Notes: generated by a model not told the origin, from the sequence alone. A DNA stretch of 56,928 bases from Gemmatimonadota bacterium (GCA_009841475.1 VXLT01000318.1:1-56928); one strand, 5' to 3'. Positions 1 through 19,716 are shown, numbered from the stretch's first letter. Made by a program: numbers and translations.

Positions 1-95
1 CCCCCCCCCCCCCCCCCCCACTTATTTTTATAACCCCACCTCCCCCTATCCCCTTCTTGCGCTTTTTGGTGTGGCCTGGGTTTTTTTAAGATCCC
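1..95. other. Artefact-like contig end: 29-nt poly-C followed by low-complexity T/C-rich sequence
   Basis: Positions 1-29 are all C. The composition that follows (e.g. acttatttttataacccc, gggtttttttaag) is unlike the rest of the window. A TAA at 87-89 closes the QatA frame upstream. Confidence 0.5.
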
Positions 96-101
96 CCGCC
101 G

Positions 102-1472
102 TTGGCTCCACCCGCCGCAGAGGGGGCGCCCGGGGCGTCTAAGCTCATCAACCCCGCCCCGGACTCCTCTCCCCCCAAAGAGATTCACGCGATCCGGAAG
201 AGCTTCACGGATACCCTGTCTGAAATGGGAATCACGCTGGTCGTTCTCATTGACGACTTGGATCGATGTCTTCCGCCCACGACGATTTCCACACTCGAAG
301 CTATCCGGCTCTTCCTCTTTCTCGAGAACACTGCGTTCGTGATCGCCGCCGACGATACGATGATCAAGCACGCGGTCCGGAAGCACTTTGAAGGGATCGA
401 GAACGAGACTCTAGTCACCAGCTACTTCGACAAGCTCATCCAGATTCCCATCCGCGTTCCGCCTCTCGGCACGCAGGAAGTCCGTGCTTACATGATGCTG
501 TTGTTCGTTGAGAACAGTGCTCTCAGCGACGCCGACACAGAGGCCATTCGGGAAAAGGTCTGCGGCCAACTCCAGCAGACCTGGCGTGGTCAACGCGTCG
601 ACCGCGCGTTCATCGAGACTACGTATGATCCGTTTCCGGCTGAACTATTAGGTAGGTTTGACACGGCCGACCGCCTTGCTCCTCTCATGGTTTCCGCCTC
701 GCAGATCGCCGGCAACCCGCGCCTGATCAAGCGCTTCCTCAATGCGCTGTCGATCCGCATGGCGATTGCTCGCATTCACGGCGTCGCGGTGGACGAAGCA
801 GTTCTCGCCAAGCTAATGCTCTTCGAACGATCCGGTCCTTCAGACGCCTACGAGGAACTCATCAAGGTGGTGAACGAGAACGAAGAGGGCCGACCAACAT
901 TCCTCGCCGACTGGGAGGAGAAGGCGCTCGCCGGACAGGAGTTCCCACTTGAAGGACCCTGGGATGTCGCTTTTGTTCGCGAGTGGCTAGCGCTGCAGCC
1001 GCAGCTTGCTGACATTGACCTTCGCGGCGCGCTGTATGTCAGCCGCGAACATGCTCCGCTCGTTACCCCGGAGGACAGACTGTCCTCAGGGGCGGCGGAG
1101 TTGCTCACCGGGATCCTCGAGAATCCGGACATGGCAGGCGCCGTACGTGATCAACTTGAACAACTACCGCCCACGGAAACGGCTGTGATCATGGATAGGA
1201 TCCTTGCGAGCGCGCGACAGGAGCAAGAATGGGGCACACCACCGATCCTCGACGCAGCTTTGGCAGTCGCCGCCGCTGACCCAGCAGCGGGCGTACGTTT
1301 TGCGGGGTTCCTGCAAGAACGCCCACCCAGTCAGGTCACTCCGAGCATCGTCCCGAAAATCAGTGGTCACTCCTGGACTTCCCAGGTATACGAGAGCTGG
1401 CTCGCGGCCGATGTCGGTGGCCCTGTGAAGAGGGCGATAGCGCAGCGCACGACAGCAGCGGACGGTAGATAG
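102..1472 (+). CDS. qatA: KAP-family P-loop NTPase, 5'-truncated (QatA-like); the Walker A part is missing
   Basis: Contains VVLIDDLDRCLPPTTISTLEAIRLFL, the KAP Walker B/DDLDRC signature. No N-terminal P-loop is present. The ORF opens with TTG just after junk sequence. It is followed by QatB/C/D-like genes. Confidence 0.7.
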   Translation: MAPPAAEGAPGASKLINPAPDSSPPKEIHAIRKSFTDTLSEMGITLVVLIDDLDRCLPPTTISTLEAIRLFLFLENTAFVIAADDTMIKHAVRKHFEGIENETLVTSYFDKLIQIPIRVPPLGTQEVRAYMMLLFVENSALSDADTEAIREKVCGQLQQTWRGQRVDRAFIETTYDPFPAELLGRFDTADRLAPLMVSASQIAGNPRLIKRFLNALSIRMAIARIHGVAVDEAVLAKLMLFERSGPSDAYEELIKVVNENEEGRPTFLADWEEKALAGQEFPLEGPWDVAFVREWLALQPQLADIDLRGALYVSREHAPLVTPEDRLSSGAAELLTGILENPDMAGAVRDQLEQLPPTETAVIMDRILASARQEQEWGTPPILDAALAVAAADPAAGVRFAGFLQERPPSQVTPSIVPKISGHSWTSQVYESWLAADVGGPVKRAIAQRTTAADGR

Positions 1473-1475
1473 CCG

Positions 1476-2333
1476 ATGGGAACATCGAAATCGAGCACTG
1501 GAGCGCCATCGAGCGTCCCTATGACACCTCCGTGGGTGCCGGACCCAGTTCCACCCTCGGACGATCCAGCCGATACGGATGGCGATGGCGAAAGCCTCGA
1601 CAGCCAGGGAGAGGGAGTCGATCAGGCGACACCAACTCGCGTACCTCTGCGAATTGCCCCACCACGCCGGTTTGCATCTGCCCGGAGAAGTCTCGGGTCG
1701 TTTGCGCGATCCGGTTCCAGAACAGACATGCGGCGTGGCGTTGGGCATTATTTTCGCAAAGGCCTTGGGGGTAGCCGATCGGCGTCACGGCGCTTCGCAG
1801 GGACCGCACGGACAGCAGGAGTCCTCTACGGTGCCCTCTCATCTTCGGCCGCTGGGCAGCCATTCGAGCCTGACAGTCCGCTGGACCCTGGTCGTCTCGC
1901 AGGGCGCTCCGCCCGGGAGATCATGGATGCGGTGGTTGAAGCAGTTCGACCCGTAGACGGGACACAGGACGCTGAAGCAAGCCGTCAGGCTGTCAACGAA
2001 GGTCTTTCCGATCTGCTTGATCGCTATCCCGACGCGGATCTTCTCAATCTTCACGAGGAGCAGCGGCTGTTCGTCATCGAACGCTTCATGGCGCAGGATG
2101 TATACAACCGCCTTTACCTCGATATCGGGAAAGCGGTGCAGGACAAGGCATCGGGTGTCTCGGCCGCTCTCCTCCGGATGCGCCAGATCAAGGACTACAT
2201 CCGTGAGACGATCTCGGCCCGTTTCCGCGCAATGCGGGCTACCGCATCCGCGCTCACACCTCGTTCGGTGGCCCAGATGGCGACACGGGCTCTCGCGGAG
2301 GCCTTTGCTGTCTTCGAGGATTACATCCAATGA
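1476..2333 (+). CDS. qatB: QatB-like protein of unknown function (called by position only)
   Basis: 285-aa ORF starting 4 nt after the qatA stop. Its stop overlaps the qatC start (ATGA at 2330-2333). I recognised no motif; the call rests on the conserved gene order KAP-X-QueC-TatD. Confidence 0.55.
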   Translation: MGTSKSSTGAPSSVPMTPPWVPDPVPPSDDPADTDGDGESLDSQGEGVDQATPTRVPLRIAPPRRFASARRSLGSFARSGSRTDMRRGVGHYFRKGLGGSRSASRRFAGTARTAGVLYGALSSSAAGQPFEPDSPLDPGRLAGRSAREIMDAVVEAVRPVDGTQDAEASRQAVNEGLSDLLDRYPDADLLNLHEEQRLFVIERFMAQDVYNRLYLDIGKAVQDKASGVSAALLRMRQIKDYIRETISARFRAMRATASALTPRSVAQMATRALAEAFAVFEDYIQ

Positions 2334-3610
2334 AGGTCATCTGCGCGCCAGCCGATTGGTCGTTCCGTCCGGACCATTCAGCCGATTTAGAAGTTGTTCT
2401 CTTCTCGCGTGCTGACCGACCCCAGCGGGGTGCGGCAGGTGCCCGCATCATCCGCGTGGTCAAGGAAGCCAAGCTGCGCCCCGACCCGCGGGCCTGGGAT
2501 CTCCTCTCGCTGGCGCTGGCTGTGACGGCGGCTGACCTAGGAGTTAGACGAGACAGGAGCCCGGATGGCTGGACGCGCGAGATCAACCTGCAAGTCGCCG
2601 TATCAGATCCGTCCTTCTGGCGCGAACACCGCTCTCTCCTCGAAAACCAGCTACGCTTCCTCACCACAGACCGGTGGACCGTCACCTTCGTTGATGGCGG
2701 TGCTCGTCCGTCGCCGCCGAAACGGGTGGTGCAGCCGGACGAAGATTGTGTTTCGCTTCTATCGGGTGGGCTCGACAGCCTTGTTGGGGCAATCGATCTC
2801 GTCGGTGGACATGGTAGGCGTCCGTACCTCGTGAGCCAGGTGGCGAAGGGTGACAAGAAAAGGCAAGTCCGTTTTGCATCGCTGATCGGGAGTGGACTCA
2901 GTCATCTGCAGCTTAACCATGACACGAAGTGTCCGGCACAGCACGAGAGATCACAGCGAGCTCGATCGATCGCCTTCCTCGCTTATGGCGTCCTGCTTGC
3001 AACGGCCCTGCGTCGCTATAGCGACGGCGACGAGATACCGCTGTTTGTCTGCGAGAACGGCTTCATATCTGTGAACCCGCCGCTGACGATTGGGAGGCTT
3101 GGTAGCCTGAGTACCCGCACTGCGCACCCGGTCTTCCTAAGCCAGTTTCAACGTTTACTTGACATGGCCGAGTTGCGGGTTCGACTCACGAATCCCTATG
3201 AGTTTGTCACGAAAGGAGAGATGCTAAGCGATTGTGATGATCAGCCGCTTCTCGAAGCACTCGCCCACGCCTCCACGAGTTGCGGACGCTTCGCCCGCTA
3301 TGCCTACAAGCATTGTGGCCGCTGTGTCCCCTGCCTCATCCGGCGAGCCAGCCTCCATGCGTGGCGAGGCCAGGATAGCACCCCTTATCACTATTCTGAC
3401 CTGTGGCGCGACGACACGAACCACGCCCGGTTCGATGATGTTCGGTCGGCCGCCATGGCTGTGACCCAGATCCGCAGGGATGGCCCTGATCGGTGGCTAG
3501 GTGCCTCGTTGTGCTCGAAGCTGATGGACGACGCGACCCCTTATCGGGAAGTTGTGAAACGCGGCATCGATGAGTTGAGCCGATTCCTCAGAGCCGTCCA
3601 AGTGATGTGA
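2330..3610 (+). CDS. qatC: QueC-like PP-loop ATPase (QatC)
   Basis: PP-loop motif LLSGGLDSLVGAIDL. QueC-type C-terminal Cys cluster SCGRFARYAYKHCGRCVPCLIRR. An N-terminal extension of about 130 aa precedes the PP-loop. Confidence 0.8.
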   Translation: MKVICAPADWSFRPDHSADLEVVLFSRADRPQRGAAGARIIRVVKEAKLRPDPRAWDLLSLALAVTAADLGVRRDRSPDGWTREINLQVAVSDPSFWREHRSLLENQLRFLTTDRWTVTFVDGGARPSPPKRVVQPDEDCVSLLSGGLDSLVGAIDLVGGHGRRPYLVSQVAKGDKKRQVRFASLIGSGLSHLQLNHDTKCPAQHERSQRARSIAFLAYGVLLATALRRYSDGDEIPLFVCENGFISVNPPLTIGRLGSLSTRTAHPVFLSQFQRLLDMAELRVRLTNPYEFVTKGEMLSDCDDQPLLEALAHASTSCGRFARYAYKHCGRCVPCLIRRASLHAWRGQDSTPYHYSDLWRDDTNHARFDDVRSAAMAVTQIRRDGPDRWLGASLCSKLMDDATPYREVVKRGIDELSRFLRAVQVM

Positions 3611-4362
3611 TCGATCTGCACTGTCACCTCGACCTCTATAGCGATCCCGCCCAAATTACCGCCACCTGCAAGGACCGTGGTATCTATGTCCTGTCGGTTA
3701 CGACCACACCTTCTGCATGGGAAGGAACTGCGCGGCTGGCGCACGGGGCTGATAGGATCAGCACCGCAGTCGGACTGCATCCGCAACTGGCCCGCGCGCG
3801 GCACGCGGAATTGGAGATCTTCGACAGGCTTCTCCCGCTCACGCGGTACGTTGGGGAGGTTGGTCTGGACGGTGCTCCCGAGTTCCAACCCCATTGGGAC
3901 ATCCAACTCGCAGTCTTCAACCATGTTCTCAAGGCCTGCTCGAACGCGGGAGGACGCATCCTATCGATCCACAGCAGGCGGGCCACCGCCGCCGTGTTAG
4001 GTCGCCTTCAGGCCTACCGCGATGCGGGGATCCCCGTGCTACACTGGTTCTCAGGTTCACGTCGCGACCTCGAATGCGCCATCGACCTTGGATGCTGGTT
4101 CAGTGTGGGCCCTGCTATGCTCCGTAGCAGGAACGGGCGTTTCCTTGCCGCACTCATGCCACGCGACCGGGTCCTGACGGAGTCGGATGGTCCGTTTGCT
4201 CAAGACAAGGGGACGCCACTGATGCCGTGGCACGTCGACCGAGCGGTTCACATCCTCGGCGAGCTCTGGTCGGTCTCGGCTGCGCAGGCACAGCAGACTA
4301 TCCGTCGCAATCTCCGAGCACTTACGATGCTCGTCCCAGACCTGCGGTCGGCGCCTAGGTAG
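3607..4362 (+). CDS. qatD: TatD-family metal-dependent hydrolase/DNase (QatD)
   Basis: N-terminus MIDLHCHLDLY is the TatD HxH metal motif. Also SIHSR, LHWFSG and ESDGPF. The GTG start overlaps the qatC stop (GTGATGTGA). Confidence 0.8.
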   Translation: MIDLHCHLDLYSDPAQITATCKDRGIYVLSVTTTPSAWEGTARLAHGADRISTAVGLHPQLARARHAELEIFDRLLPLTRYVGEVGLDGAPEFQPHWDIQLAVFNHVLKACSNAGGRILSIHSRRATAAVLGRLQAYRDAGIPVLHWFSGSRRDLECAIDLGCWFSVGPAMLRSRNGRFLAALMPRDRVLTESDGPFAQDKGTPLMPWHVDRAVHILGELWSVSAAQAQQTIRRNLRALTMLVPDLRSAPR

Positions 4363-4484
4363 TCTTACTTCCGGGCATCCGGTCGCGCCGCGAACCTCGC
4401 CTGTCATAATCAAGATGGGCGGGGGACTGTCGCGATGCTGTCGAACGTTCTCGATCTAGGCCCGCTTACCCGACTGCTCGGGAT

Positions 4485-4875
4485 CTACAACCATAGCCTC
4501 GCGTAGGGTTCCATCTTCGCCCACCATTCGGCGGGTGTGACGATGCTCAGCGGCAACCCCCTTAGGTCATCGCGAAGCTGCAGAACCGTTCTCCAGTCCC
4601 GCGTGCAAAACAACTCGCACCGATAGACGACGGCGTCACAGACGAGTACACGGTCACCCATGTCCGATAGCGCGTCGAGACTGCCTGATGCGAGCAGGCG
4701 AACGCGAATCTCCTCGGCTTCGACGAAGCTCGGCAGGTCGTTGTCTGAACAAATGGTACGTTGCCAATAGTGCCATGTGTCACTGAACCAAGTCTCCAAT
4801 TGGTAGCGTCTGGCGTCATCGGAGGTCGCTGCTATCTAGGAAAATCCGCCTTGGCAGGTCTTGAAGATCCATCAT
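4485..4875 (-). pseudogene. PIN-domain (VapC-like) gene, apparently frameshifted near 4820
   Basis: Minus strand ATGATG at 4875 gives MMDLQDLPRRIFLDSSDLR then a stop. The next frame continues DARRYQLETWFSD...DRVLVCDAVVYRCELFCTRDW...IVTPAEW. FLDSS and CTRD resemble the first and last acidic motifs of a PIN domain. Confidence 0.4.
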
Positions 4876-4999
4876 GTCCGCAGGGACACTGCTCGCACTA
4901 TCGCGTGCAGGACCAACTCCTCACGACCTGTGTCGGGCACGGCGCGGGGAGCAGTCCCAAGATACCTCGCGCCCGCTGGCCCCCCCCCTATTCGACGCG

Positions 5000-5920
5000 T
5001 CACTTTGCAACCTCCTCGCGCTCCTCAGAGGCACCCATTCCATCATTCTCTAACCCCGCGGAGTCTCCTGGACCCACCCGTTCCACCGGTCCTACCCCCT
5101 TGAGCCGCTCTACCATCGCATCGCAGCACTCTTCTTCTCTGTCGCATGCGATAAACTCCATCCCGATCTCCCTCGCCGCCACCAAAGACGTTCCGGCTCC
5201 AGCAAACGGGTCCACTAGGAGCCCGCCCCTATCCCCGCTGATCCTCACCACTCGTCGCAGCAGTGGTAGAGGCAACTCGTTCCCGGGACGGCTCTTGTTC
5301 CTCCGGTGACGCACTGGACTGAGATCATCCCATACATCACTTAGGTTCAACCCTTCACTACTCACGTATTCCAAATAGCCGCCGTAGTCCTTCACCAGTC
5401 CACCACAATGCCGACAAGTTGCCGGAGGAATCTTCGGCCGCCGAAACACGCGTGGTACACCTTTAGAATAATGTAAGAGTGCGTAATGCGCTGGATACAA
5501 GCGGCCCCCGTATGGATAGCTTCCCTTCATCGACACAGCAATCCAGTGACAGAAATCAAGCACACCCTCGAGCATACCTCCGATACGAATCGCCCACGCT
5601 GGTAGATGATATACGTACAACGCTCCTCCTGGGCGCAACACTCGCACGCTCTCCTCCACCATGGACGAAAGCAACTCTAGGTACTCCTCCTCCTCAAGTT
5701 GATCACCGCTCCGCGGACTACTTCCGTATCGCTTCCCTAGGTTGAACGGTGGATCCAGAAACACTACATCGGCACTGCCGTCTCGTACGGTCGACATGAA
5801 ATCCCTCGCGTCCACCGAGAAAATCAAGCCATCCCTTAGCTCTCTATGTGGCATGACTCCCTTGTTCCGTAGCGCCTCCAGCGCACGACGCGGCAGCTCA
5901 TCCACTTCGACATCTCTCAT
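5000..5920 (-). CDS. Beta-class N6-adenine/N4-cytosine DNA methyltransferase
   Basis: Catalytic motif IV is near the N-terminus (VVFLDPPFNLGKRYG). SAM-binding motif I is C-terminal (LLVDPFAGAGTSLVAAREIG). Its start overlaps the stop of the upstream gene by 4 nt. Confidence 0.85.
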   Translation of the reverse strand: MRDVEVDELPRRALEALRNKGVMPHRELRDGLIFSVDARDFMSTVRDGSADVVFLDPPFNLGKRYGSSPRSGDQLEEEEYLELLSSMVEESVRVLRPGGALYVYHLPAWAIRIGGMLEGVLDFCHWIAVSMKGSYPYGGRLYPAHYALLHYSKGVPRVFRRPKIPPATCRHCGGLVKDYGGYLEYVSSEGLNLSDVWDDLSPVRHRRNKSRPGNELPLPLLRRVVRISGDRGGLLVDPFAGAGTSLVAAREIGMEFIACDREEECCDAMVERLKGVGPVERVGPGDSAGLENDGMGASEEREEVAK

Positions 5921-6885
5921 GCTTTGCCAAGACTCCCATCGCTTGCAATTTGTGTGAAGTTCGAAAAAATCTCCCGTAGCGCCTTGCGATACCCTGCATC
6001 AGGTGTGGAGATCAACGACCCGGCTGGTATGAACTCCAATATCCAAGCTGCCATCGGGGCGTTAGGCGGCGTCCCGTAGCGAAAGTTGTGCTTGGTCACC
6101 AATCGCCAGCCCAAGTTTTGGACCACTTGTGCAATCTTCTTTGGCACAAACACCATCAAGAACCGTTGCTGTTCTACGCGATCCAAGTCTTTGAAGTCGA
6201 TTGTGTTTGCTGCCACGAGGCGCTCCACAAAGTCTTTGGTTAGCGCATTGGTGGCGCGCACGCGAAACTCGTCGTCGCGACCGAGGTTTTCTCGCATGAA
6301 TGCCTGGGCTGACTCGGCCACCTGGACGGGCCATGGAATCGTCCCGTTTAATGTGAGGCATAGAGTCCACTGCAGCGGTTGCGGGCCCGCATGGATCTCA
6401 AGAAGTTTCCGGATCACCTCGATGACTGGAAAGACCACCAACCCACCCGCAGACTGCGCGATGAGCCCCGTGTTGAGATCCAGATTGACGACGCGCGCCC
6501 GAAAGAGGCGACGGTCCTTCTTTGCGGGCCAGTTAAACTGACTTTGCCACGCTAGGAGGTTTTCGACCGTGCCTTCTATGATCTTCATGCCAGGAAACTG
6601 TTGGATCAGTTCCGCAACGGCCATCCCGTTACGTTCAATGCAGACGACTCGGAATTGTTGATCCTCGGCGATGGCACCGCTCTCCGTCAGAGCGAGCAAG
6701 CCTTGATCGATGAGCAACCGAACATCATACGCTGCCGGGCCTGGAAGGGTAAGAAACAGAGGATCAGTATCCTCTGGATACCGTTCAGAATAGGCCTTAG
6801 CCTCTTCCAACCAAAACTCCCGCATCACCTCCTTCTCCGGACGCAGCTCCGACATCGCTTCGTGAACCGGCTGTCGACCCTTCAC
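5917..6885 (-). CDS. Hypothetical 322-aa protein, middle gene of the GHKL-X-MTase operon
   Basis: ORF is overlap-coupled at both ends (6882-6885 and 5917-5920). No motif recognised. FLTLPGPAAYD...VVCIERN...VVNLDLN is only vaguely Rossmann/MTase-like. Confidence 0.6.
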   Translation of the reverse strand: MKGRQPVHEAMSELRPEKEVMREFWLEEAKAYSERYPEDTDPLFLTLPGPAAYDVRLLIDQGLLALTESGAIAEDQQFRVVCIERNGMAVAELIQQFPGMKIIEGTVENLLAWQSQFNWPAKKDRRLFRARVVNLDLNTGLIAQSAGGLVVFPVIEVIRKLLEIHAGPQPLQWTLCLTLNGTIPWPVQVAESAQAFMRENLGRDDEFRVRATNALTKDFVERLVAANTIDFKDLDRVEQQRFLMVFVPKKIAQVVQNLGWRLVTKHNFRYGTPPNAPMAAWILEFIPAGSLISTPDAGYRKALREIFSNFTQIASDGSLGKA

Positions 6886-8378
6886 TTCCGCAACCGCTCG
6901 GTAAGTCGCTTGACGAAACGGGCCAGAACCGGCTTCGGTAAGACCTCTTCGGCAACTCCAATTACGATATCGTACAGCTGGCTAACTGAGTACTTCCTCG
7001 TCAACCTAACCGCCCAGGTGTCACTCCCAGCCTCATCCCGCCACGTTTCCTTGACCTCCTCCATGGCTTGTGGGGCCACCGCTGTCCGGTCAGCAACAAC
7101 GCGTTCAATCTGCCGCATCTCGCCCTCGGCCCGATACACGCGGCGTGCCGTGGCGCCTGCGCCGTACAGTTCCCGTCTTACGTCTTTCAGGAAGCGAGAC
7201 ATGAATTCATGCAGGGCTTTTCGCAGTTCGACGTACGCCGGATGAACATCGCGGAGAGTGCTTCGGTCGATATTCATCGCGTCTTCAAGTTCGTCGTTTG
7301 CCCACACCTCTCCGCTAACCCATGTCTTGAACAACGGTCCTTCCGACGCCGGGAATCCCCAATATGTCTTGTCGTACTCCCCAACGGCGGCGTGTCGAAT
7401 GCGAACCAAGACCCCTTGCAATTCCTCAGGCTGAATTCGGCCATGTTGAGCATAGAAATAGCCTCGAGCCGCCACCCGGTCGCCACGGTGCTCGAACGTT
7501 CTCGTCAGGGTTCGCTTGTCTCCCGGCCGCAGAACGATCGGCTTTCGGACATCCGTACCGTCGTACTTGAGCGCCAGATTCAAAGTGTCCGCCTCCACTG
7601 AGAACTCTTCCAGTCCGTCAGCCAGTACGGCCTCTGGAGCCCAAGCAGGGGCATAAGCGACCGGCACATTGAGACCGATTCGCAACATCGTCTGCGAATA
7701 TGAATCTAGGTCGGTCCATGAACGGAGCTTTGGGTCTGCAAGAGCATCAGCTATCGATTCCGGCGATTTTCCATAAAGCGATCCCGGCTGGTGTCGCGCG
7801 CCCTCTCCGGCCAAGAGATCCCTTGCCTCACCGCGGATCTCCTTAAGGACGAGAGTAGTGTGATGATCGTTTGGATGGGCAGATAGGATCTCACCCATAT
7901 AATCAGCTTTGGCGAAGTCACCGCCGTCCCGCCTACGCTTGTCAGGATCCGTTCTCATCATCCTGAAGTTGATAGTGACATGCAGAAGGTCTTTACTGTT
8001 GATCTGTGTCGAGTAGATCTCGAGTTCCTCGCACAACTCGTTCGCGGCAATAAAGCCAATGCCTATTCGGCCGATCTTGGGTCGGCCACTTGTCGTCGTG
8101 TCTGAGTTGTCGCGCTTGCGTGACTCGGCGATTCGACTGAAGTGGGCCTCGAACTCCTCTCGTGAGAATCCCGTGCCATCATCTTGGACGATGATCCGGT
8201 CCGCGTCCGGCTTGACCGATACATGAACGTTGAGCGCATCCGCATCGTAGGCGTTATTGATCAATTCTTTCAGACACGCGGCAGGCGACTTGTAGATGCC
8301 GGAGCTAAGGTGGTCCACGATACGCGACGCCACCTTGATCTCGCCCTTGAATCCTTCGGTTTCTTGTGCCATGGTCAC
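6882..8378 (-). CDS. GHKL (HATPase_c/MORC-like) ATPase
   Basis: Bergerat-fold motifs: N box LKELINNAYDADA, G1 VQDDGTGFS, G2 GRPKIGRIGIGFIAA. There is no HisKA or other kinase context. It is the first gene of a three-gene overlapping operon. Confidence 0.8.
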   Translation of the reverse strand: MTMAQETEGFKGEIKVASRIVDHLSSGIYKSPAACLKELINNAYDADALNVHVSVKPDADRIIVQDDGTGFSREEFEAHFSRIAESRKRDNSDTTTSGRPKIGRIGIGFIAANELCEELEIYSTQINSKDLLHVTINFRMMRTDPDKRRRDGGDFAKADYMGEILSAHPNDHHTTLVLKEIRGEARDLLAGEGARHQPGSLYGKSPESIADALADPKLRSWTDLDSYSQTMLRIGLNVPVAYAPAWAPEAVLADGLEEFSVEADTLNLALKYDGTDVRKPIVLRPGDKRTLTRTFEHRGDRVAARGYFYAQHGRIQPEELQGVLVRIRHAAVGEYDKTYWGFPASEGPLFKTWVSGEVWANDELEDAMNIDRSTLRDVHPAYVELRKALHEFMSRFLKDVRRELYGAGATARRVYRAEGEMRQIERVVADRTAVAPQAMEEVKETWRDEAGSDTWAVRLTRKYSVSQLYDIVIGVAEEVLPKPVLARFVKRLTERLRK

Positions 8379-8769
8379 CCGCTTCGCGACGAACTTCTGA
8401 CCCGAACGATCATGGACAAGCGTGCTCCTGTTCGGACCTCGGATGCGCGCGCCGCTAGGTGCGCCCTTGACCTGCTGTCTTTCCGCCTACGCGGGTCGGC
8501 CTGGCACGTCTCGGTCCTCCACGACCTCATCTTCCTATGGCCTCCCGAATTGTAGGTCGCCGAGCACGAACGGCTCTGGTCCCTGCGCTCCGGAGCAGGG
8601 AACACCGCACGCGCTGCGAGTTCCACCCTCGGCGCCCTCCGGCTTCCAGTAACAGGATCCACGGGTTGTTCACGCCGGAGAGAACGGCTTGACGACATGG
8701 CCCGCCGTGCCCGGCCGTCGATGCCTGGGCGAAATCGTCTCGTCGCACCCGTTCGGTCCCAAGGTGAAC

Positions 8770-8961
8770 TCAGCCGCTTCCGGGTTTGTTCTTCGAGGGG
8801 TCAACCAAGGTGTAGGTCGAGCCACGCACGGTCGTCGGTGGTAGCGGTTTCCCCTTCACCGCTGTGAGCTCGCGACCCTTGCCGCCCCGGGGATCGATTT
8901 GCTGATACTGACCGGAAGCGGGTGCCTCCGTACCCGGCGTCCAACCACTCGTTGTGGCCAT
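8770..8961 (-). CDS. YjzC-like small protein (63 aa)
   Basis: Internal ATG at 8961 is preceded by an AAGGAG RBS (reverse complement of ctcctttc). Sequence MATTSGWTPGTEAPASGQYQQIDPRGGKGRELTAVKGKPLPPTTVRGSTYTLVD fits the YjzC pattern G..AP.SG.Y....RGG....T...G...PPT. Confidence 0.55.
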   Translation of the reverse strand: MATTSGWTPGTEAPASGQYQQIDPRGGKGRELTAVKGKPLPPTTVRGSTYTLVDPSKNKPGSG

Positions 8962-10839
8962 CGTTGCTCCTTTCTCCCATGCACGGCGTTCGGGCGGGTG
9001 CAGCCCGCCGTGAACCTCGCAATGTAACACCATCCGGTCTGCGGATCCCGAATCGCGCCACTGAGCCCTGGCCGAGAGCTTGCGGGCCGTGCGCCCGGCG
9101 GACGTCTCATGAACGGAGAAACCGCGTGGGGTCAGGCCCGAGGAACGGATCCAAGAATCTTCTCCGCAACCGGTCGGCTTCCCACGCTGTGCTAGGGTCC
9201 CCGCAACTGTAGTCGACGCCGAGCTGGTTGAAGACACAGGTTGGGGTCGGTGCCGGGGGTCCCCCGATGCCCACGCCCATTCGTTTCAGGCCGCCAGAAT
9301 CACCTCACGCTGCACAGCCAACCTAAACGGAGGGCGTGAATCCCGGCAAGGAATCGTCTAAGTTCAACCAGGACTGCACGATCTGCCGTTCGTGCCGTGA
9401 GGTGCTGTACGGGGCTATCGTGCTCCAATAGCGTGAAAGCCGGGTCAATCAGCGGGAGTTCGGCAGGAACCGTCGACGCTACGCTGTCCTTCACATGGGT
9501 TCGGTTTCGCCGACACGAAGGAACGATGCCGTGGGGTTTTGTCCACGGGCTAGAGAAACTCGCATAGGAAGCGACGCGTTCCGGATGACTGGTTCGGTTT
9601 GCTCCGAATTGACGCAGGTCATGGAGGCGGCGAGGTAACGGGCTCGTAGCTCCTCGATCCTCGAGCCTGGAAGCCCCTTTCCTCCACGGTCGCAGATGAC
9701 CGCCTCGCGGTGAGGCCGGGTAGATTCCTCCGTAGACCACGGGATCACGCCCGAGACGTGAGAGTATCCGCCCTCGAAGTCGTCCTCAGTCGGACTCTCG
9801 GTCTTCGGCACGTGTACGTAGAGGCCACCTTCCGGGATCCCCGGTCTCGAAGTGCGGGCCGTCCACCGAGCCCAACCGCACCCAAAACGGTTCGGCATAG
9901 ACCGCGTGGACCGTCGTCCCCGCGCCCGTGGTGACCTCCCGGACTTCGAATCGACATTCCGGCTGGCCGGAGCGGCGGCGGGACGGCCACGACCAGCGCG
10001 GTGATTGAGTAGGCAAGTGAGCGCTTCACTGGGTGTACCTCCAGTCTCAGGGACAACGGTCGCCGGTTCCCTTCCTCTATGCTACCCGGATCCGGACTGA
10101 GGGCGCGAGCGCCGCCCTCCTTCACCGGTCGCGCCTTCGGCTACGGCCAGTATCGCCGCCGTCGGCTACATCGTCCTTTTTGCGCACCGCCTACGGACGC
10201 GACGACGCTGGAGGCGGCCTCGCGGATCGAGGCGCAGACCTGGGAGGGTCTCCCGAAGCTGGACCCGGAAACGCCCGGGTAAGGGCTCGAACCACTATTG
10301 AGAGCATTCGCAGGACCCGGAGGCCCGGATCACGAAGATCAAGCACGGCTGGACTCATCTGGCGCAGGAGGTGGACGTGGACACTGGAGCGGCGGTTGCC
10401 ACCACCGTGCAGACGATGGTCGGCGCCGACACGGCCTCGCTGCCGGTGAAGCTGGACGGGGCGGAGCGGCGGCTGGCGGAGACAGGGACGAGGGGGCCAC
10501 CACTCGACCCGGACCACAACGGACCAAAGAAGCGGGGGTAGCAAAGCTAAAGTGAGCGAACCCGACCGGGGCGGTCGCAGACGGGAGGATTCTCGAGGGG
10601 AGCCGAGCTATCATCCCAGCTTGGGCCACCTTACACTCGCGTGGCGTAACGCGAGTCGCGATCTTGGTCGCTGGCGGCAGATCCGTGCGTGCCCCGGGAG
10701 GAACCCACATCCGGGCTCACCCCCGCCCCTTCAAGCGGTCCCCCTTGCCCCGGTTGCCCAAGTGATCATACGATGCACGTGTGACTGGAAGGAACATCCT
10801 ACCCGTACGAACCCGCATTCCCGAGATTGGGAGGACGAC

Positions 10840-11037
10840 ATGTCGGAGGAAACGCAGGAGCAGCCGCAGCCGGAGGAGAGCCAGAAGGCGCAGGAAGAGC
10901 CAAGACAGGACAACGAGAAAGGATCTTCTGGAGAGTGGGAGTTCACGTCCGACGTCGTCCGGATGACGGATGATGAGGGACCCACGCGACCCACCACCGA
11001 CAAGGGTAGCGGAGCAGGCCGAGGGGATGGCATTTGA
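10840..11037 (+). CDS. Small acidic hypothetical protein (65 aa)
   Basis: ATG at 10840 lies 5 nt after a GGGAGGA RBS. Sequence MSEETQEQPQPEESQKAQEEPRQDNEKGSSGEWEFTSDVVRMTDDEG is hydrophilic and unlike the Arg-rich shadow ORFs around it. A possible TTGCCC-18 nt-TACGAT promoter lies upstream. Confidence 0.4.
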   Translation: MSEETQEQPQPEESQKAQEEPRQDNEKGSSGEWEFTSDVVRMTDDEGPTRPTTDKGSGAGRGDGI

Positions 11038-11177
11038 CCCTTGGGGGTCTGCTCCGAGGCCGTGCGTTCTCAATGGGCCGATTCGGGACGCGGTCCCCGT
11101 CCCACCACTTCCACGACGAGGCTCCGCTGGCGAATCCGAAATGGACCGACACCCAATAGATACGCCGCATCCGTTGC

Positions 11178-11957
11178 GTGGATCCAAGATCGTTGGGGCT
11201 GGCCAACCACTCTCGGAGGGCTACGAACGGACGCGAAATCGACGGCTCGTACGTCGCAACATTCCCCCTGACCCTTTCGGGAGGGCCATCAACCATTAGC
11301 GACGGCAACAACAAGAGACATCTTCTCATTCGACTAACACGCGACCGAACACTGAAGTTATTCCAGTCCTTGTTGCGGAAGCTTCACCGCGCGCTCGACA
11401 GTCTCTCCTTCACCCTCGATAGGCTTATTGTGCCCGACAACCGTGATACCGAGCAAGAGAATGACGGTGACAATGACCGCCGTCCTCGCCCTAGCGCTCC
11501 ACTTGCGTACGATTACGCAATCCAGTCATACGAGATTGCGGCGAATAGACTCAACACGATTCGCGATCGGCTGAGTGGCCTCGCTACCATGATACTGACT
11601 GTTACTCTGGCGGTGGGGACGTTTGCGGAACATGGTAGTGGCATCTCTGCTTGGATCTTCCGCCTTGCACTGATCTGGGGCGGCGTTACTGTACCGGTGG
11701 CGCTCTACAACTTACGGCGGCGAACGCTGCGACAACCGGATCTTGACAAAATGTGGGATGCCACCCACCGAGAGCCCGATGATTTTAAGGCGCGTCTGCT
11801 GCAAGAGACCGTTCGGTGTAGTTCTGTGAACAACCAACGACTAGAGAGATTCCAGACTACCTATGACAGGCTCCTCATTTCGTTTATGATTCAGATCGTG
11901 TTGTTCTTGGTCTCGCTTCTTCTTTCGGGCGAGCCTGTGACCGGTCATGCCAACTAG
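11178..11957 (+). CDS. Hypothetical membrane protein (about 3 TM segments), start uncertain
   Basis: Hydrophobic segments LATMILTVTLAVGTF, ISAWIFRLALIWGGVTVPVALY and LLISFMIQIVLFLVSLLL. The region is visibly less GC-rich than its flanks. The Arg-rich N-terminal 40-50 aa may not be translated. Confidence 0.4.
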   Translation: MDPRSLGLANHSRRATNGREIDGSYVATFPLTLSGGPSTISDGNNKRHLLIRLTRDRTLKLFQSLLRKLHRALDSLSFTLDRLIVPDNRDTEQENDGDNDRRPRPSAPLAYDYAIQSYEIAANRLNTIRDRLSGLATMILTVTLAVGTFAEHGSGISAWIFRLALIWGGVTVPVALYNLRRRTLRQPDLDKMWDATHREPDDFKARLLQETVRCSSVNNQRLERFQTTYDRLLISFMIQIVLFLVSLLLSGEPVTGHAN

Positions 11958-12687
11958 AGACATGCGTGGCCTTAGTGTAAGCAGGCGCGAAAGGTCCCTG
12001 CTGGCCACGGTGGCCGCAGTCGAGGCCGGTCCATCCGTACGTCTTCCGACAAGGCCTAAGACACTTGACTGCACGGCTCGAACGCCCGACTTGTCACCGC
12101 AGCATTGATTCCCCTCAGGCTCCATTCCGCGGTGCTCTCGCCATACGCGTCCGTCATGCGCACCGCAAACACCGCGGCGTTGCGCATCTGCTCAAATGAT
12201 CGCCCCATTGTCCTCGCCGAAAAAGAGGGTCCTACCACTGTACCAGAGCGTCCGTTCTTCCTCGCTGTCGTCGAAAACCAAGACTACGTTCCGGTATTGC
12301 GAGCGGATGGTTACCTGGCACCATTACGAAGTCTACCCCATATGCGCAGCGTTCCGGATTCGTGTGAGTTCACGGAGCAACTGAGCATGAGCTCCGGCAC
12401 GTCGGATCTCGTAGGCCACCAGTCCATTGAAGACGGATCGCCGCAGTCGATCCCGATGCTCTCCAACTCTTTGCACACACCTGGCAGATGGCCAAGACTT
12501 CGCCTCGAGTGTCGCCCATCCCGATGTTCCCATGCCATCGACTTCCCATGTGCCTCTTGAACGGATCGCTACCACCAGCAACACCCCGGCAACCCCAATC
12601 GCGGTCACGGCCGCCTTTACGCGTGGGCTCACAGATCGCCATCTGCCTGCAACAAGAGATCCACACATAACGCTTGCCCGCTCCGGA

Positions 12688-13764
12688 TCAAAGGGAAAGG
12701 TCAAAGACAGCGACGAAGGGCGCGTGATCAGATTCCGGGTACTTCATGTCGACAGCGAACGGCAGACTCTCGTCGTGCAGACCTTCGTTGTGAATCGCCA
12801 CGCAACACAAGTGCGCCAACAACGGTTTCGACACCAGTATATGGTCCAAGAGGTTGCCTTCTCCGTGATGCAAGTGAGTGAACCTGAGCGACTCGGGCAC
12901 CATCTCACTGCAGGCAATCATGACGCGCTTTCTTAGCGCGGGATTGCCTGTATTCTCAACCCGTCCGCAGATGGCCTCGATCGGCACTTCTCCGGGCTCG
13001 GCGTTGAGGTCCCCACACACCAGCACTTTCGCATCTGGTTCGTCGTCGAAGATAGTGTCCAAAAGTACTCTTGTTTCCAGCGCCTGGCCGACCCGCTTTA
13101 TCGACGAAAGAAAGTAGCCTTCTGCCCATCCGGCTGCGGAACGCCACAACCACCATTGCTCTTCGTCGATCTGGCCCTTTATCTTCGACGGCAATCGCGA
13201 TTTGAGATGTAGGTTTATGATATGTAGCTTATGCTTCTGTTTCCCCGAGTCTACGGTAATCGTCGCATGAAGAATCGGGCGTTCCCAACTAATCATCGCA
13301 TTCGGTTGCTCGCCCTCCTCTGCCTCTTCAGCTTTCTTCTCGGTGACCGGCACATACATCAGTTTGTCAATCCACTTGTTCCTGTACTGACTGCACGAAT
13401 CAAAGGGGAAACGCGAGAGGATCACCAAGTTGCGTTTTGCACGCGGAACCCCTTCGTGGTCGGGAAGCGACGTCCAATACGGATGATAGTTCTCGTAGAT
13501 GGTTGTCTTTAGCAGCTCGTTGAGGGCACCCAGTTCTCTCTTCGGGTTGTCCTCAGTATGTCCATCTAAGTTCTCAGCATGGACTTCCTGCAAACACAGG
13601 ACATCGGCCCGGAGTCGAGCTAGTACTCTTCTGAGTTCGTCCTGCCTAGCGTGCACCCCAGGATTGTTTTTCCGATCCTCGAAGGTGAGGTTCTCGATGT
13701 TGAAGGTCGCGATTCGGAGCATTCGGTCGTCCTCAGCGTTAGCGTGATAACCATGCTGTGTCAT
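12688..13764 (-). CDS. Endonuclease/exonuclease/phosphatase (EEP) family protein
   Basis: EEP motifs LRIATFNIENL, DVLCLQEVH, VLVCGDLNAEPGE and C-terminal PESDHAPFVAVFDL. Lower-GC codon usage. Confidence 0.85.
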   Translation of the reverse strand: MTQHGYHANAEDDRMLRIATFNIENLTFEDRKNNPGVHARQDELRRVLARLRADVLCLQEVHAENLDGHTEDNPKRELGALNELLKTTIYENYHPYWTSLPDHEGVPRAKRNLVILSRFPFDSCSQYRNKWIDKLMYVPVTEKKAEEAEEGEQPNAMISWERPILHATITVDSGKQKHKLHIINLHLKSRLPSKIKGQIDEEQWWLWRSAAGWAEGYFLSSIKRVGQALETRVLLDTIFDDEPDAKVLVCGDLNAEPGEVPIEAICGRVENTGNPALRKRVMIACSEMVPESLRFTHLHHGEGNLLDHILVSKPLLAHLCCVAIHNEGLHDESLPFAVDMKYPESDHAPFVAVFDLSL

Positions 13765-13869
13765 CTAGCCCTGCATCGGCAATGGGGACCGTACGGTCTA
13801 ACCTAACGTTCTTGCCGCATGGGTCGACATCTGGGCCCAATCGTGCTGACATCACCGAAGAATGGCCAC

Positions 13870-15135
13870 TAGTAGGGTATGTGGACGCCCCGGAATGCGC
13901 AATCCCGGGGGTCGGCGTCCGAGTCGGTGGCATCCGGGTGAGCTAGTGTCAGATGTACCGCTTCCTCACAGTAGCCTACCCCCTGGCCGGGGGTCCGATG
14001 CGTGAGTAGACCAGGTCGGTGGTTTCGAAACGAAAAGGAGACGGGGGAGGCCACGGCCAGCGAGATGTCAAGGCGCGCTCATCATCGGGCGTTCGATGGC
14101 CATGCCCAAGTCCCCACGTGGCCACCCGAATGACCGCACGCTGTACAGGCACGGCCACCGGCGCTCGTCCGCGGGCTGGTGGCAGCAGGTAGTACCCGAG
14201 AGACCGACGCACTCGACCATCCGGAGGGCCGTCCCAGATTGTCCGAGCAGTGGCGGCTGAGTCTGATCGGTTGGAAGACCTCGCGCTCTCGGTGCTTGCC
14301 CGAGGGACGCTCGACACTGTTCCGAAGCCGAGGGTCGCCCCAGGTCAGCGGGCGGGTGGATCCTCGACAATGGCATTCTCATGTTGGATGCTGTCGGCTT
14401 GGCTCATCACCGCCGTGGCCGCCAACCGGCGGACATGCGCCTGCGCGGGCAGGTGGCGGCGATCATAGTCCCAGGCTTCGCCCGCCAGTTCGCGGGCGAG
14501 GGTGCGGAGCCTCTCGATGGTCGTCATCCAGTGGTCCTCGGGGGTCTGTGGCTGCTGGTATTTACCGGTCTTGAGGGGTCTGGGGGGTCGATACAATCGC
14601 CCATCATCGATCCATCATCACCGGGCCACGGCTCGCCTAGAGAGGCCAGTTCGTGCGGATTCCGATCACCCCTTGGTCGAGCGGGCGGGCGGGCTGGAGA
14701 ACCTGACGCAGCGGCCACCGCCAGCCGTTCATCCGTTGCGAGCGCGCCTTCACCCGTTTCCGGGGCTCGACCATCCACGCGAGAATGTCGAGTTCCTCGG
14801 CCGGAATCCCCGAAACCGGGTCCCTACCCCTCCCGGGGGGTCGAGTTCGTGCGTTACAGGCGATCCTGCGGGCTTGAATCTCGCCCCTCCGCCCCCAAGA
14901 CGACCAGAATGGACGTGAGAGCGGTTTTGTTACCGGTCTCGACGGGATGGGAGGGTGGCATTGCCCGGATGTCTGACACCCAGTCGGCCAGAGGCCCGCC
15001 TACGGGCGGATCCTCAAGCCCTCGCCGGTCAAGACCAAGCTCCCGGCTGGCCGGTCCGTCGAGGACCATGTCCGGTCGGCCCGTCGGCCACGGACGGGGC
15101 AGGGGCTCAGGAGCCGCTCGTGTGGCCATGGTAGT
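13870..15135 (-). pseudogene. Heavily decayed IS701-like (DDE) transposase remnant
   Basis: The minus-strand reading frame is broken over at least 4 frames. Fragments: MATRAAPEP...LADWVSDIRA; VEPRKRVKARSQRMNGWRWPLRQ (compare ERKNGWQLAE); DQGVIGIRTNWPL (compare GVLIVDETGF); LGYYLLPPARGRAPVA and RRWPCLYSVRSFGW (compare RELYLPESW). Family assignment is tentative. Confidence 0.35.
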
Positions 15136-15226
15136 TGCGGGAATCCGCATTCCGGTCAGCCCCAACCATCGGGGGATGGCGGAGGCACACTTGATCGCGG
15201 CCCCTCGCGCAGACGCTGGTAACGGG

Positions 15227-16237
15227 CTAGTCGCTACGGCTCCACACGGTTACAAGCGTGTCAGCCGCCACGACAAGATGGTCTCGGGTCACCGATATGG
15301 CCGTCACGGACGGTGTCGGGATTGGGATGGAGTATTGGTACTGGCCTCGCTCAGCTTCGTACACATCGACCAAATACGTGCCCTCGCCGTGGGCAAGCAC
15401 ATACACCGTGTCCCGGCGGGCGACGAGGCCGAATGACGCCCCAATCCGGTCTTCCGGCGCGATCATGAAAGCACCGTCCTGGCTGACCGGAGTTGGGAAG
15501 GGCTGCTCTACGATCGTGCTCCCCAGATAGCGCCGCGCACCATCGTCAGCGGACCAACGGCCGAGGAATCCGCCGTAGGCACCGCTGTAGAAGATACTCG
15601 ATGCGTTCGCGTCGACGAATCCCCAGAGCGCAATCGCGCTCTCAAATCCCTGATCGTCTGCCACCCGGCCGAAGTCGTTCACGACGGTGCCGCTACGGGT
15701 CACCCGCCGAAACAGCAGGCTGTCCAACACCATGAGAACCACATCGTCGTCCGGGGTGAGTTCGAAGGCTGTAGCGTTCCCTGGCACTCTGATCGTCTCT
15801 ACCAACTCGGCCGCCTGATCGAACACCTGGATTCGGCCTTGCGCCGGGTCCAGCGTCCAAACCCGACCCGTCGCATCCACTTCGAAATCGCTGAGGGAGA
15901 GGAATTCCCCAGGACCCTGGCCTTCGCCAGTCCCGTAATCACGGATGAAATCACCCTCAAGAGTGAACTGCCGGACAAGGGGCGCACCGAAGTCCATGAC
16001 ATAGACGTGATCCTCCTCTGCGGATACAGCGAGCCTCATTGGGTTCGCCAGCCCCCACGGCACTGCTCCCAGGTAGGCTACTGCCGTTTCAGGCGGGTCC
16101 ACAAGGACGCGCTCGGAGGAACGCGTCGCCACCTCCTCGGACGCCGCCTCGTCGCGTTCACACGCACCGAGGATCGCCCAACACGCTGCTGCAGTCGCCA
16201 CGGCGCAGCGCGCCCCGGATGCGACGCCCGTAGACAT
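15227..16237 (-). CDS. Six-bladed beta-propeller (NHL-like) lipoprotein, paralog 1
   Basis: Lipobox AILGAC. Family signature DYGTGEGQGPGEF. The DVYE and TVW repeat character is shared with the five other paralogs. Confidence 0.75.
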   Translation of the reverse strand: MSTGVASGARCAVATAAACWAILGACERDEAASEEVATRSSERVLVDPPETAVAYLGAVPWGLANPMRLAVSAEEDHVYVMDFGAPLVRQFTLEGDFIRDYGTGEGQGPGEFLSLSDFEVDATGRVWTLDPAQGRIQVFDQAAELVETIRVPGNATAFELTPDDDVVLMVLDSLLFRRVTRSGTVVNDFGRVADDQGFESAIALWGFVDANASSIFYSGAYGGFLGRWSADDGARRYLGSTIVEQPFPTPVSQDGAFMIAPEDRIGASFGLVARRDTVYVLAHGEGTYLVDVYEAERGQYQYSIPIPTPSVTAISVTRDHLVVAADTLVTVWSRSD

Positions 16238-16249
16238 CGTCCCGCTTTG

Positions 16250-16552
16250 TTACTTCTTCGGCGGCTCGACGACGGGGGCCGGACCCAAGCAAGTGACGTT
16301 GTGCCCGTCAACGACTGCGTTCGCACACGGATGGAGCCCAGGTGCGCAGAGCTTCGGGCAGAGGGGCCCATCATCCTCGCTCGCGCAGAGACCGGTCGTC
16401 AGTGGCGATCCGGCCGGTAGCGTTGGGAGGAAGGCCGCAGCCGCAGCAACGGCAACGCCGACGGCGGCGACGCGGAACGGTCGGCGGTCGGTTGTGAACA
16501 GCGCCAAGCACGTAGCCGTGAAGGCGCGAACGGTGTGGATAACGGTATTCAT
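16250..16552 (-). CDS. Small Cys-rich secreted protein (100 aa)
   Basis: Internal ATG at 16552 follows an AAGAGGAGGA RBS. It has a hydrophobic leader (AAVGVAVAAAAAF). The mature part, LCASEDDGPLCPKLCAPGLHPCANAVVDGHNVTC, has 5 Cys. It ends 13 nt before the propeller gene start. Confidence 0.6.
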   Translation of the reverse strand: MNTVIHTVRAFTATCLALFTTDRRPFRVAAVGVAVAAAAAFLPTLPAGSPLTTGLCASEDDGPLCPKLCAPGLHPCANAVVDGHNVTCLGPAPVVEPPKK

Positions 16553-16586
16553 CGTGGCTGTCCTCCTCTTGGACGTGGGGTGCGAT

Positions 16587-16682
16587 CTTCGATGGGAATC
16601 ACCCACCGAACTCGTAGTCACAGTATGGCGACTGAGTGTGCTCTCGTCAAGACGGATATTCCATGAGGATCGCGAATTGTGA
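16587..16682 (-). promoter_or_regulatory. 96-nt promoter/leader module, copy A (-35 TTGACG at 16650-16645, -10 CATACT at 16627-16622)
   Basis: Its reverse complement aligns with 19621-19716. The 64 nt from TTGAC onward have 5 mismatches. The upstream 32 nt share TCACAATT and CATGGA blocks. Confidence 0.65.
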
Positions 16683-16800
16683 AGAATACTGCCCCATTTA
16701 CGCCTGAATCCCATTCTAGCGTATGCCTTGTACATGTCTATTTGTTCTGTTATTGTGTTGTCACCGTGACGTGACAAACTCGACCTAGGAGGGCTGACCG

Positions 16801-19620: not shown

Positions 19621-19716
19621 TCACAATTGCCGCTTTCCCATGGACATCAGGCTTGACCCGAGCACATTCAGTCGCCATACTGTGACTACGAGTTCGGTGG
19701 GTGATTCCCGCCGAAG
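19621..19716 (+). promoter_or_regulatory. 96-nt promoter/leader module, copy B (-35 TTGACC at 19653-19658, -10 CATACT at 19676-19681)
   Basis: Inverted copy of 16587-16682. It sits about 50 nt upstream of the 19766 ATG, which follows a TAAGGAGG RBS. Confidence 0.65.

Follow-up and report, generated by a model that had tools for sequence, protein, structure and literature searches.

How a methylation-based defence locus might restrict foreign DNA without a recognisable nuclease is the question raised by three consecutive minus-strand genes at positions 5000-8378 of a 56,928-nucleotide stretch of DNA from a Gemmatimonadota bacterium (GCA_009841475.1 VXLT01000318.1:1-56928, hereafter the window). 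The genes encode a GHKL ATPase, a 322-aa protein referred to here as the partner, and a beta-class DNA methyltransferase. An initial annotation, made from the sequence alone, had read the three genes as an uncharacterised, methylation-linked defence cassette, and that reading is supported by the analysis described here. The cassette is best classed among the GHKL-associated restriction-modification (R-M)-type systems, where it represents a widespread, conserved and uncharacterised member. With moderate confidence, it is interpreted as a self-contained, mobile R-M-like defence cassette in which the ATPase and the partner together form an unconventional interference arm.

In the open reading frame (ORF) listing, the three genes follow one another on the minus strand: the ATPase gene (6882..8378, 498 aa, GTG start), the partner gene (5917..6885, 322 aa, GTG start) and the methyltransferase gene (5000..5920, 306 aa, ATG start). 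The ATPase and partner genes are joined by a 4-nt overlap, GTGA, at 6882-6885, and the partner and methyltransferase genes by a second, ATGA, at 5917-5920. Both overlaps lie exactly where the initial annotation had placed them, and the three ATPase motifs that it quoted (ELINNAYDA, DDGTGF and GRIGIGF) and its order of methyltransferase motifs, with motif IV before motif I, were likewise all located. All three genes are real, each having full-length homologues in other phyla. The upstream GTG start of the partner, and hence its overlap with the ATPase gene, is upheld because the N-terminal residues RPVDxAM are conserved among partner homologues. The true start of the ATPase, judged by sequence comparison, is probably the ATG at 8372 (496 aa) and not the GTG at 8378, because its close homologues are 496 aa long and begin MAQE.

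The conservation of the cassette was assessed in 104 related loci, which were collected and scored with profiles of the three proteins; 44 of these are non-redundant loci with an orthologous ATPase, and they span at least six phyla. In 35 of the 36 loci with at least 900 bp of sequence downstream of the ATPase, the next gene is that of the partner, often with a 4-nt overlap; the sole exception (L029) contains a disrupted ATPase. The pairwise identities of the two proteins also co-vary (Spearman 0.62). The ATPase-partner pair is an obligate unit. A beta-class (PF01555-type) methyltransferase is present within 300 bp of the pair in 29 of 33 informative loci, and the trio that had been proposed as a unit from the window therefore co-occurs elsewhere.

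The methyltransferase of the window is assigned to the beta class of N6-adenine/N4-cytosine DNA methyltransferases by its Pfam gathering score and its motif order. It matches Pfam N6_N4_Mtase (PF01555) over profile positions 2-220 of 221 (E = 1.3e-24; 87.8 bits against a cut-off of 26.7), and the order is that of the beta class because motif IV, DPPF (residues 56-59; 5744-5755, minus strand), lies N-terminal to motif I, FAGAGTS (residues 239-245; 5186-5206, minus strand). Among PADLOC models, it matches MTase_II PDLC03238 (2e-68) and, weakly, mad2 (3.8e-10).

The methyltransferase behaves as a swappable modification module. Its gene lies downstream of the pair on the same strand, the arrangement of the window, in 17 loci; downstream and convergent in nine; and upstream in three. 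The methyltransferases fall into two size classes. Those of ~260-390 aa share for the most part 43-55% identity with the methyltransferase of the window, and those of ~440-550 aa for the most part 21-25%. Methyltransferase identity correlates only weakly with that of the ATPase or the partner (Spearman 0.20-0.21). The nucleotide homology between the window and locus L005 is confined to 5917-8351, ending exactly at the boundary between the partner stop codon and the methyltransferase gene, and the methyltransferase of L005 is 53% identical to that of the window and oppositely oriented. The modification gene is thus freely exchanged in subfamily, side and orientation, and the ATPase-partner core is kept. 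Four loci depart from the common arrangement: in L001 the nearest methyltransferase is part of a complete C-protein/BglII R-M system; in L007 the methyltransferase lies at a distance of 5.4 kb; in L011 the pair is separated from a 550-aa N6_N4 methyltransferase by another and different HATPase_c_3 protein (482 aa, 7972-9420, minus strand); and in L037 a DndC-like 3'-phosphoadenosine-5'-phosphosulfate (PAPS) reductase (Pfam 3.9e-13; PADLOC DndC 2.4e-57) abuts the partner gene at 7457-8512 (minus strand), with no beta-class DNA methyltransferase detected at that locus. Two further features of these loci were observed: in L011 one methyltransferase is flanked by two GHKL ATPases, and in L037 a gene for a generic class-I methyltransferase (Methyltransf_23/25; 4128-4919, plus strand) lies just upstream of the ATPase gene.

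The pair and its modification gene also move together. By blastn, positions 4994-8620 of the window are 86.6% identical to locus L101 over 3632 nt, with unrelated flanks, and in L016 the cassette is inserted between housekeeping genes. Because the nucleotide match to L101 ends at the cassette edges and the match to L005 ends at the partner/methyltransferase boundary, the locus is a horizontally mobile cassette of ~3.6 kb, composed of an invariant two-gene core and an exchangeable modification gene. Its hosts belong to Gemmatimonadota, Actinomycetota, Acidobacteriota, Abditibacteriota, Alphaproteobacteria and 'Deltaproteobacteria', and many are soil bacteria. The closest relatives of the window are from Longimicrobiales (Gemmatimonadota), and a cultured carrier is Nonomuraea wenchangensis (Actinomycetota; assembly GCA_900111685.1). 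One copy, in L100, has a partner gene (10506-11047) with an internal deletion of residues ~77-203, although the ATPase (88% identical) and a convergent methyltransferase are still present; it looks like a decaying copy of the cassette and sits beside RES/Xre, HEC-01A/AriA-like ATPase and transposase genes.

In the ATPase, a Bergerat fold is followed by a middle domain resembling S5/transducer domains and, at the C-terminus, by a helical domain (residues ~380-498). The protein matches Pfam HATPase_c_3 (E = 5.9e-18; 65.7 bits against a cut-off of 25) and belongs to the GHKL superfamily, possessing, in order on the Bergerat fold and all on the minus strand, motif I (ExxxNxxD; N-box KELINNAYDA, 8241-8270), motif II (DxGxG; G1 box DDGTGF, 8166-8183) and motif III (GxxGxG; G2 box GRIGIGF, 8052-8072). 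In an alignment of 31 homologues, the invariant columns include E38, N42 and D45 of motif I, D66, G68 and G70 of motif II, and G103, G106 and G108 of motif III. Also invariant in this alignment are N369, I370, D371, R372, T374, L375 and R376 of the middle-domain segment MNIDRSTLR (7251-7277, minus strand), a candidate catalytic loop that we take to resemble the catalytic arginine loop of Hsp90, 'NLSREMLQ'. At least 559 homologues of the ATPase were found, ~50% identical across phyla.

The AlphaFold2 (AF2) model of the ATPase (predicted local distance difference test score, pLDDT, 84.8) was matched by Foldseek to the N and M modules of Hsp90/TRAP1 (~5e-13) and also to MutL, and the best query-normalised template modelling (TM) scores were obtained with MORC2 (9cdj, 0.49) and MORC3 (5ix2, 0.47). 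As modelled, the protein is a complete GHKL and transducer module of the Hsp90/MORC type, and it looks catalytically complete because the Bergerat fold, the transducer-type middle domain and the invariant MNIDRSTLR loop are all present. The sole conserved segment of the S5-like domain that starts with G, GVLVRIRHAAVG (residues 322-333), differs on manual motif comparison, made without a profile, from the MORC-specific S5 motif GhXhhpXXRhl, having R at a hydrophobic position and A at the R of the motif. The ATPase had initially been likened to the MORC-like GHKL proteins linked to R-M loci; the linkage fits, but the protein is nearer to Hsp90 than to MORC proper.

Matches of the ATPase to named models are confined to its GHKL domain of ~170 aa. 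They comprise NCBIfam NF050001, BbrUII/HgiDII (E = 1.4e-24 over profile positions 4-169 of 659, with a score of 86.6 bits where the cut-off is 550); PADLOC REase_II (4.7e-17); PADLOC TmtA of Tiamat (8e-8); and NCBIfam MzaB (20 bits against a cut-off of 850). Pfam, NCBIfam, PADLOC and Foldseek revealed no nuclease domain in the ATPase. The candidate identity of an HgiDII-type restriction enzyme was rejected, given that only the GHKL domain matches NF050001.

The partner (5917..6885, minus strand) has no Pfam match and no match among 5027 PADLOC models, and to that extent it is as unrecognisable as initially reported. It is not, however, without family. It matches NCBIfam NF047698 (PP_RS20740) over residues 15-272 (E = 1.2e-7; 31.4 bits), which is below the cut-off of 200 bits and is unaccompanied by a local Pfam match, placing it outside PP_RS20740/PF28273 proper; at the level of superfamily homology, sequence comparison supports its being a distant relative of this uncharacterised family (NF047698/PF28273). 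The literature on PP_RS20740 comprises only a paper on a furfural-tolerance mutation, in which the protein is treated as hypothetical (PMC9630843). With an exhaustive profile search, 302 clusters of the partner family were recovered at 50% identity, and for 196 of these the E-value was below 1e-30; a word-index search recovered just 31 relatives.

The AF2 model of the partner (pLDDT 90.7; predicted TM score 0.90) has a divergent class-I Rossmann fold of the S-adenosylmethionine (SAM)-dependent methyltransferases, with seven strands in the topology b1-aA-b2-aB-b3-b4-aD-b5-(insert)-b6-b7 and a helical insert between beta5 and beta6. In a Foldseek search of the PDB, 49 of the top 50 matches are SAM methyltransferases, with probabilities of up to 1.0 and identities of no more than 15%, and the matches include TcaB9, PmtA, HsdM/M.EcoKI, Trm1 and TrmM; most matches among the viral structures of BFVD are also SAM methyltransferases. 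By inference from the topology, the motif I position is occupied by beta1 and its glycine loop, LTLPGPAAYD (6724..6753, minus strand), with an invariant G49; the ribose-binding acidic position of motif II by the end of beta2, VVCIE (6634..6648, minus strand), with a near-invariant E84; and the catalytic position of motif IV by beta4, VVNLD (6478..6492, minus strand), with N134 and D136 invariant in 71 sequences. T178 and Y270, at positions of the substrate pocket, are also invariant across these 71 family members. Because the conserved residues fall at the motif I, II and IV positions and in the pocket, the model suggests that the partner holds a real ligand or catalytic site, and SAM binding is putative. 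The partner was also considered as a restriction endonuclease and rejected, having a methyltransferase fold in a confident model and no nuclease match.

Defence signals are also present in the wider neighbourhoods of the cassette. Its neighbours outside the window include, in addition to the C-protein/BglII R-M system of L001, a MazE-PIN toxin-antitoxin system, a STAND NTPase with a second methyltransferase, a RES protein with a HEC-01A/AriA-like ATPase, and a ZorD/DpdE-like SNF2 protein. One partner homologue, P0160 (476 aa; L099 498-1928), is fused at its C-terminus to a TIR_2 domain (6.8e-26), and upstream of it on the same 2-kb contig is a fragment of an ATPase C-terminus. A sister clade, with ATPases ~30% identical to that of the window, is followed by PF28273-annotated partners that score 50-69 bits against PP_RS20740, and it sits in overt R-M/Dnd-like contexts. 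In three of its loci (L063, L102 and L104), a B12-binding/radical-SAM enzyme of 356-380 aa is present, with or without a 560-aa methyltransferase; in L061 there is a PbeA-like HKD-SF2 helicase-nuclease (PADLOC 4.4e-198), and in L051 a DndB/DpdB-like protein and a methyltransferase. The trio of GHKL ATPase, PF28273 protein and radical-SAM enzyme appears to be undescribed.

From these observations we infer the following mechanism. The beta-class methyltransferase would mark host DNA at target sites, and the coupled ATPase-partner complex would examine DNA and act on that which is unmodified, and so foreign. The partner may be the reader of DNA and of its modification state, possibly in a SAM-dependent manner, as are PglX in BREX and Mod in type III systems, and the GHKL dimer may be an ATP-driven clamp or switch, as would be in keeping with the proposal of Iyer et al. 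and with GHKL mechanics. The final step could be cleavage by an unrecognised site, non-nucleolytic entrapment of DNA, or a toxic transferase activity. An R-M-type self mark is proposed because the modification gene is exchanged: it may encode one of several distant methyltransferases, a DndC-like enzyme or, among sister-clade loci, a radical-SAM enzyme. This is how a protective mark would be expected to behave if the interference module that it serves is generic. The interpretation also fits the prediction, made in 2008 by Iyer, Abhiman & Aravind, that GHKL paraMORC ATPases act in R-M systems (PMC2292703).

Several results weigh against this interpretation. Neither a nuclease nor a helicase nor any other known effector was detected in the trio with Pfam, NCBIfam, PADLOC or Foldseek, and the initial annotation was right to report no nuclease, helicase or specificity subunit. 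The isoelectric points of the three proteins all lie in the acidic range (5.6-6.1). A comparison of the window and L101 with L005 revealed no localised hypervariable segment resembling a target recognition domain in either the ATPase or the partner, and so no sign that the pair carries a matching sequence specificity of its own, although the methyltransferases compared may share specificity. Searches of plasmids, phages and viral contigs yielded no orthologues, the plasmid matches being to the GHKL domain only. Finally, the partner has no sequence similarity to known methyltransferases by profile comparison, SAM binding being read only from the topology of its fold: the best match of a 71-sequence partner profile to PDB sequences has E = 0.13, and the hhalign probability for alignment with a canonical class-I methyltransferase is 0.2%.

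The main rival, unlikely as it is, casts the pair as accessory to the methyltransferase: an ATP-dependent loader or regulator would recruit or activate that enzyme within an epigenetic or phase-regulatory module, in which case restriction would need an unlinked nuclease. This alternative is modelled on MANTIS/Gao_RL, where loading of the defence methyltransferase can depend on an ATPase together with a co-regulator (bioRxiv 10.64898/2026.09.23.753747), and both that precedent and the lack of a nuclease in the trio favour it, as does the addition of the PbeA-like helicase-nuclease in at least one sister-clade locus, which would fit a pair that is not itself the effector. A dedicated loader is nevertheless hard to square with the swapping of distant methyltransferases, and once of a DndC-like enzyme, with no matching change in the pair. 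In L001, moreover, the only methyltransferase near the pair belongs to another, complete R-M system, and the fusion of one partner homologue to TIR speaks for a role as effector.

A classical type II R-M system with a novel, unrecognised nuclease site in the ATPase, the partner or both is quite unlikely. The precedent for it is R.HgiDII, which REBASE lists as a type II restriction enzyme; its N-terminus is a GHKL domain and its C-terminus has no assigned fold (PMC2441816), and such a hidden site is suspected in the latter. In favour of this reading, the ATPase of the cassette contains conserved acidic and histidine residues after the catalytic loop region (E365, D371, H379, E384 and H390). However, its resemblance to BbrUII/HgiDII stops at the GHKL domain, the rest of the protein folds as an Hsp90/MORC-type middle domain and helices, and the partner has a methyltransferase fold.

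Restriction could also proceed without any nuclease, an alternative that is held to be doubtful to the same degree. The partner, as a pseudo-enzyme or a SAM-dependent reader, would here recognise target sites that lack methylation and recruit the Hsp90/MORC-like GHKL dimer, which would spend ATP to clamp, loop or compact the unmodified DNA, so that foreign DNA is silenced and not cut. By analogy, the cassette would then be a prokaryotic counterpart, possibly an antecedent, of eukaryotic MORC silencing that reads the state of DNA methylation, and the pair would amount to a reader-motor transferable to any modification enzyme, be it a methyltransferase, a DndC-like enzyme or a radical-SAM enzyme.

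The least probable explanation is an abortive-infection or toxin module, in which the partner would be a toxic methyltransferase or SAM enzyme directed at RNA, DNA or protein, gated by the GHKL ATPase and silenced by the self mark of the DNA methyltransferase: the invariant G49, E84, N134, D136, T178 and Y270 lie on active-site elements of class-I methyltransferases and the TIR domain of one homologue is typical of abortive-infection effectors, but canonical methyltransferase motifs are unrecognisable in the partner sequence and, to our knowledge, no defence system has been described in which a methyltransferase is the toxin.

The surroundings of the cassette in the window agree in part with the defence-island context that the initial annotation described. 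A complete QatABCD system, identified by PADLOC, occupies positions 1-4362 on the plus strand, convergent with the cassette. It consists of QatA (102-1472; 3.8e-99), whose N-terminus is cut by the window edge such that the profile match begins at position 166, followed by QatB (1476-2333; 2.2e-40), QatC (2330-3610; 5.1e-102) and QatD (3607-4362; 2.4e-92). The GC content of the trio is 0.56-0.57, compared with 0.60-0.66 in the flanks, as had been noted. With Qat in the window, and with the R-M, STAND, toxin-antitoxin, HEC-01A/AriA-like and ZorD/DpdE-like genes and the TIR fusion of related loci, the defence context is upheld. Two of its initially proposed elements were not recovered: neither the 'broken PIN gene' at 4485-4799 (minus strand) nor the 'decayed mobile DNA' at 8.7-12 kb yielded a Pfam match at E <= 0.1.

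Upstream of the cassette, a non-coding region at 8379..8620 (minus strand), conserved with L101 by blastn, is a putative promoter and 5' untranslated region. No sigma-70-like site above chance was detected upstream of the cassette; promoter, terminator and transfer RNA (tRNA) scans around it gave nothing informative, and no tRNA gene lies within window positions 1-20000. A 107-aa ORF with an ATG start at 8375-8698 (minus strand), which overlaps the ATPase start by 4 nt, was considered as a hidden fourth gene and rejected: it is R/S-rich and uncalled in relatives, including L101, and is probably spurious despite the nucleotide conservation of 8379-8620 with L101.

Further upstream, a gene of the Exo_endo_phos (EEP) family is located ~4 kb from the cassette at 12688-13764 (minus strand), and a gene of the same family is located ~3 kb upstream of the cassette in the Nonomuraea locus L014 (1755-2660). 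Some EEP enzymes are nucleases; the presence of EEP genes upstream of both cassettes is probably a coincidence. Between 17000 and 19000, the window has a GC content of 0.73-0.75, and long overlapping ORFs occur at 16750-19326 (minus strand, 858 aa) and 16801-19110 (plus strand, 769 aa).

If the cassette defends its host, it would be a compact, three-gene addition to the methylation-based defences, common in soil bacteria. It offers a tractable model for DNA restriction without a recognisable nuclease, the same long-standing puzzle as BREX, and for the actual role of the prokaryotic GHKL/MORC-type ATPases, which have been linked to R-M by prediction since 2008. The interpretation, if true, would also give the PP_RS20740/PF28273 superfamily a first role, and would show that a GHKL motor has taken a methyltransferase scaffold as its obligate partner. 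Two features merit experimental attention: the trio lacks a recognisable nuclease, and its MORC/Hsp90-like motor is paired with a methyltransferase-shaped protein.

In comparison with known systems, the trio does not correspond to any multi-gene system of PADLOC v2.0.0, including BREX, DISARM, MADS, Mza, Tiamat, Pbe, Dnd, Ssp and the PDC/HEC candidates, and a literature search found no paper that names or describes it, consistent with the initial view that this is not a described system. Nor does it match a classical type II R-M system: a methyltransferase is present, but Pfam, NCBIfam, PADLOC and Foldseek showed no PD-(D/E)xK, HNH, GIY-YIG, PLD or half-pipe fold in the trio. Tiamat (TmtA) and GHKL-Shedu (VcSduA) share with it the use of a GHKL ATPase in anti-phage defence; TmtA, however, is 1300-1650 aa long, VcSduA carries a DUF4263 nuclease, and neither is accompanied by a methyltransferase or a methyltransferase-fold partner. 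BREX, through PglX, and MANTIS/Gao_RL share its proposed logic, in which a methyltransferase provides the self mark, ATPases are essential, and self is told from non-self with no classical type II nuclease; the role of DNA reader likewise falls to a protein of methyltransferase fold, as is proposed for the partner in the trio. In type 4 BREX, the PAPS-reductase BrxP replaces PglX, which parallels the DndC-like exchange in L037. The trio differs from both systems in that its ATPase is a GHKL protein and in that it comprises only three genes; beyond generic methyltransferase-level similarity no homology to either was detected, and there is no match to PglZ, BrxC, BrxL or an AAA+ ATPase of the MtsA type.

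The remaining comparisons are closer. BbrUII/HgiDII (NF050001) provides the best named match of the ATPase GHKL domain and is likewise paired with a DNA methyltransferase, but full-length membership of that family (550 bits, including the C-terminal domain) does not extend to the ATPase of the window, which lacks the C-terminal domain; here a separate, methyltransferase-fold protein would carry the remaining function. The PP_RS20740/PF28273 relatives of the sister clade also directly follow a GHKL ATPase and reach up to 69 bits, whereas the partner of the window, at 31 bits against a cut-off of 200, represents a distinct and more divergent subfamily, and the PF28273 loci seen contain B12/radical-SAM, PbeA-like nuclease-helicase or DndB-like genes in place of the minimal methyltransferase trio. 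The closest conceptual relatives are the paraMORC/MORC operons of the 2008 analysis, whose GHKL and S5-type ATPases are linked to DNA methyltransferases, occur sporadically in laterally mobile, variable islands, and were predicted to act as ATP-driven switches in R-M-type systems (PMC2292703). With its GHKL and S5/transducer ATPase in a DNA-modification neighbourhood conserved in the great majority of loci (29/33), the cassette conforms to the generic paraMORC description. As described in that paper, however, those systems for the most part include SF2 helicases and nuclease candidates of the RE-fold, HNH, HKD or TIR types, of which the trio has none, and the accessible text of that analysis makes no mention of a methyltransferase-fold partner (PMC2292703). 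Already known since 2008, therefore, is the link between GHKL ATPases and R-M; the lack of a recognisable nuclease, the fold of the partner and the layout of the trio are new.

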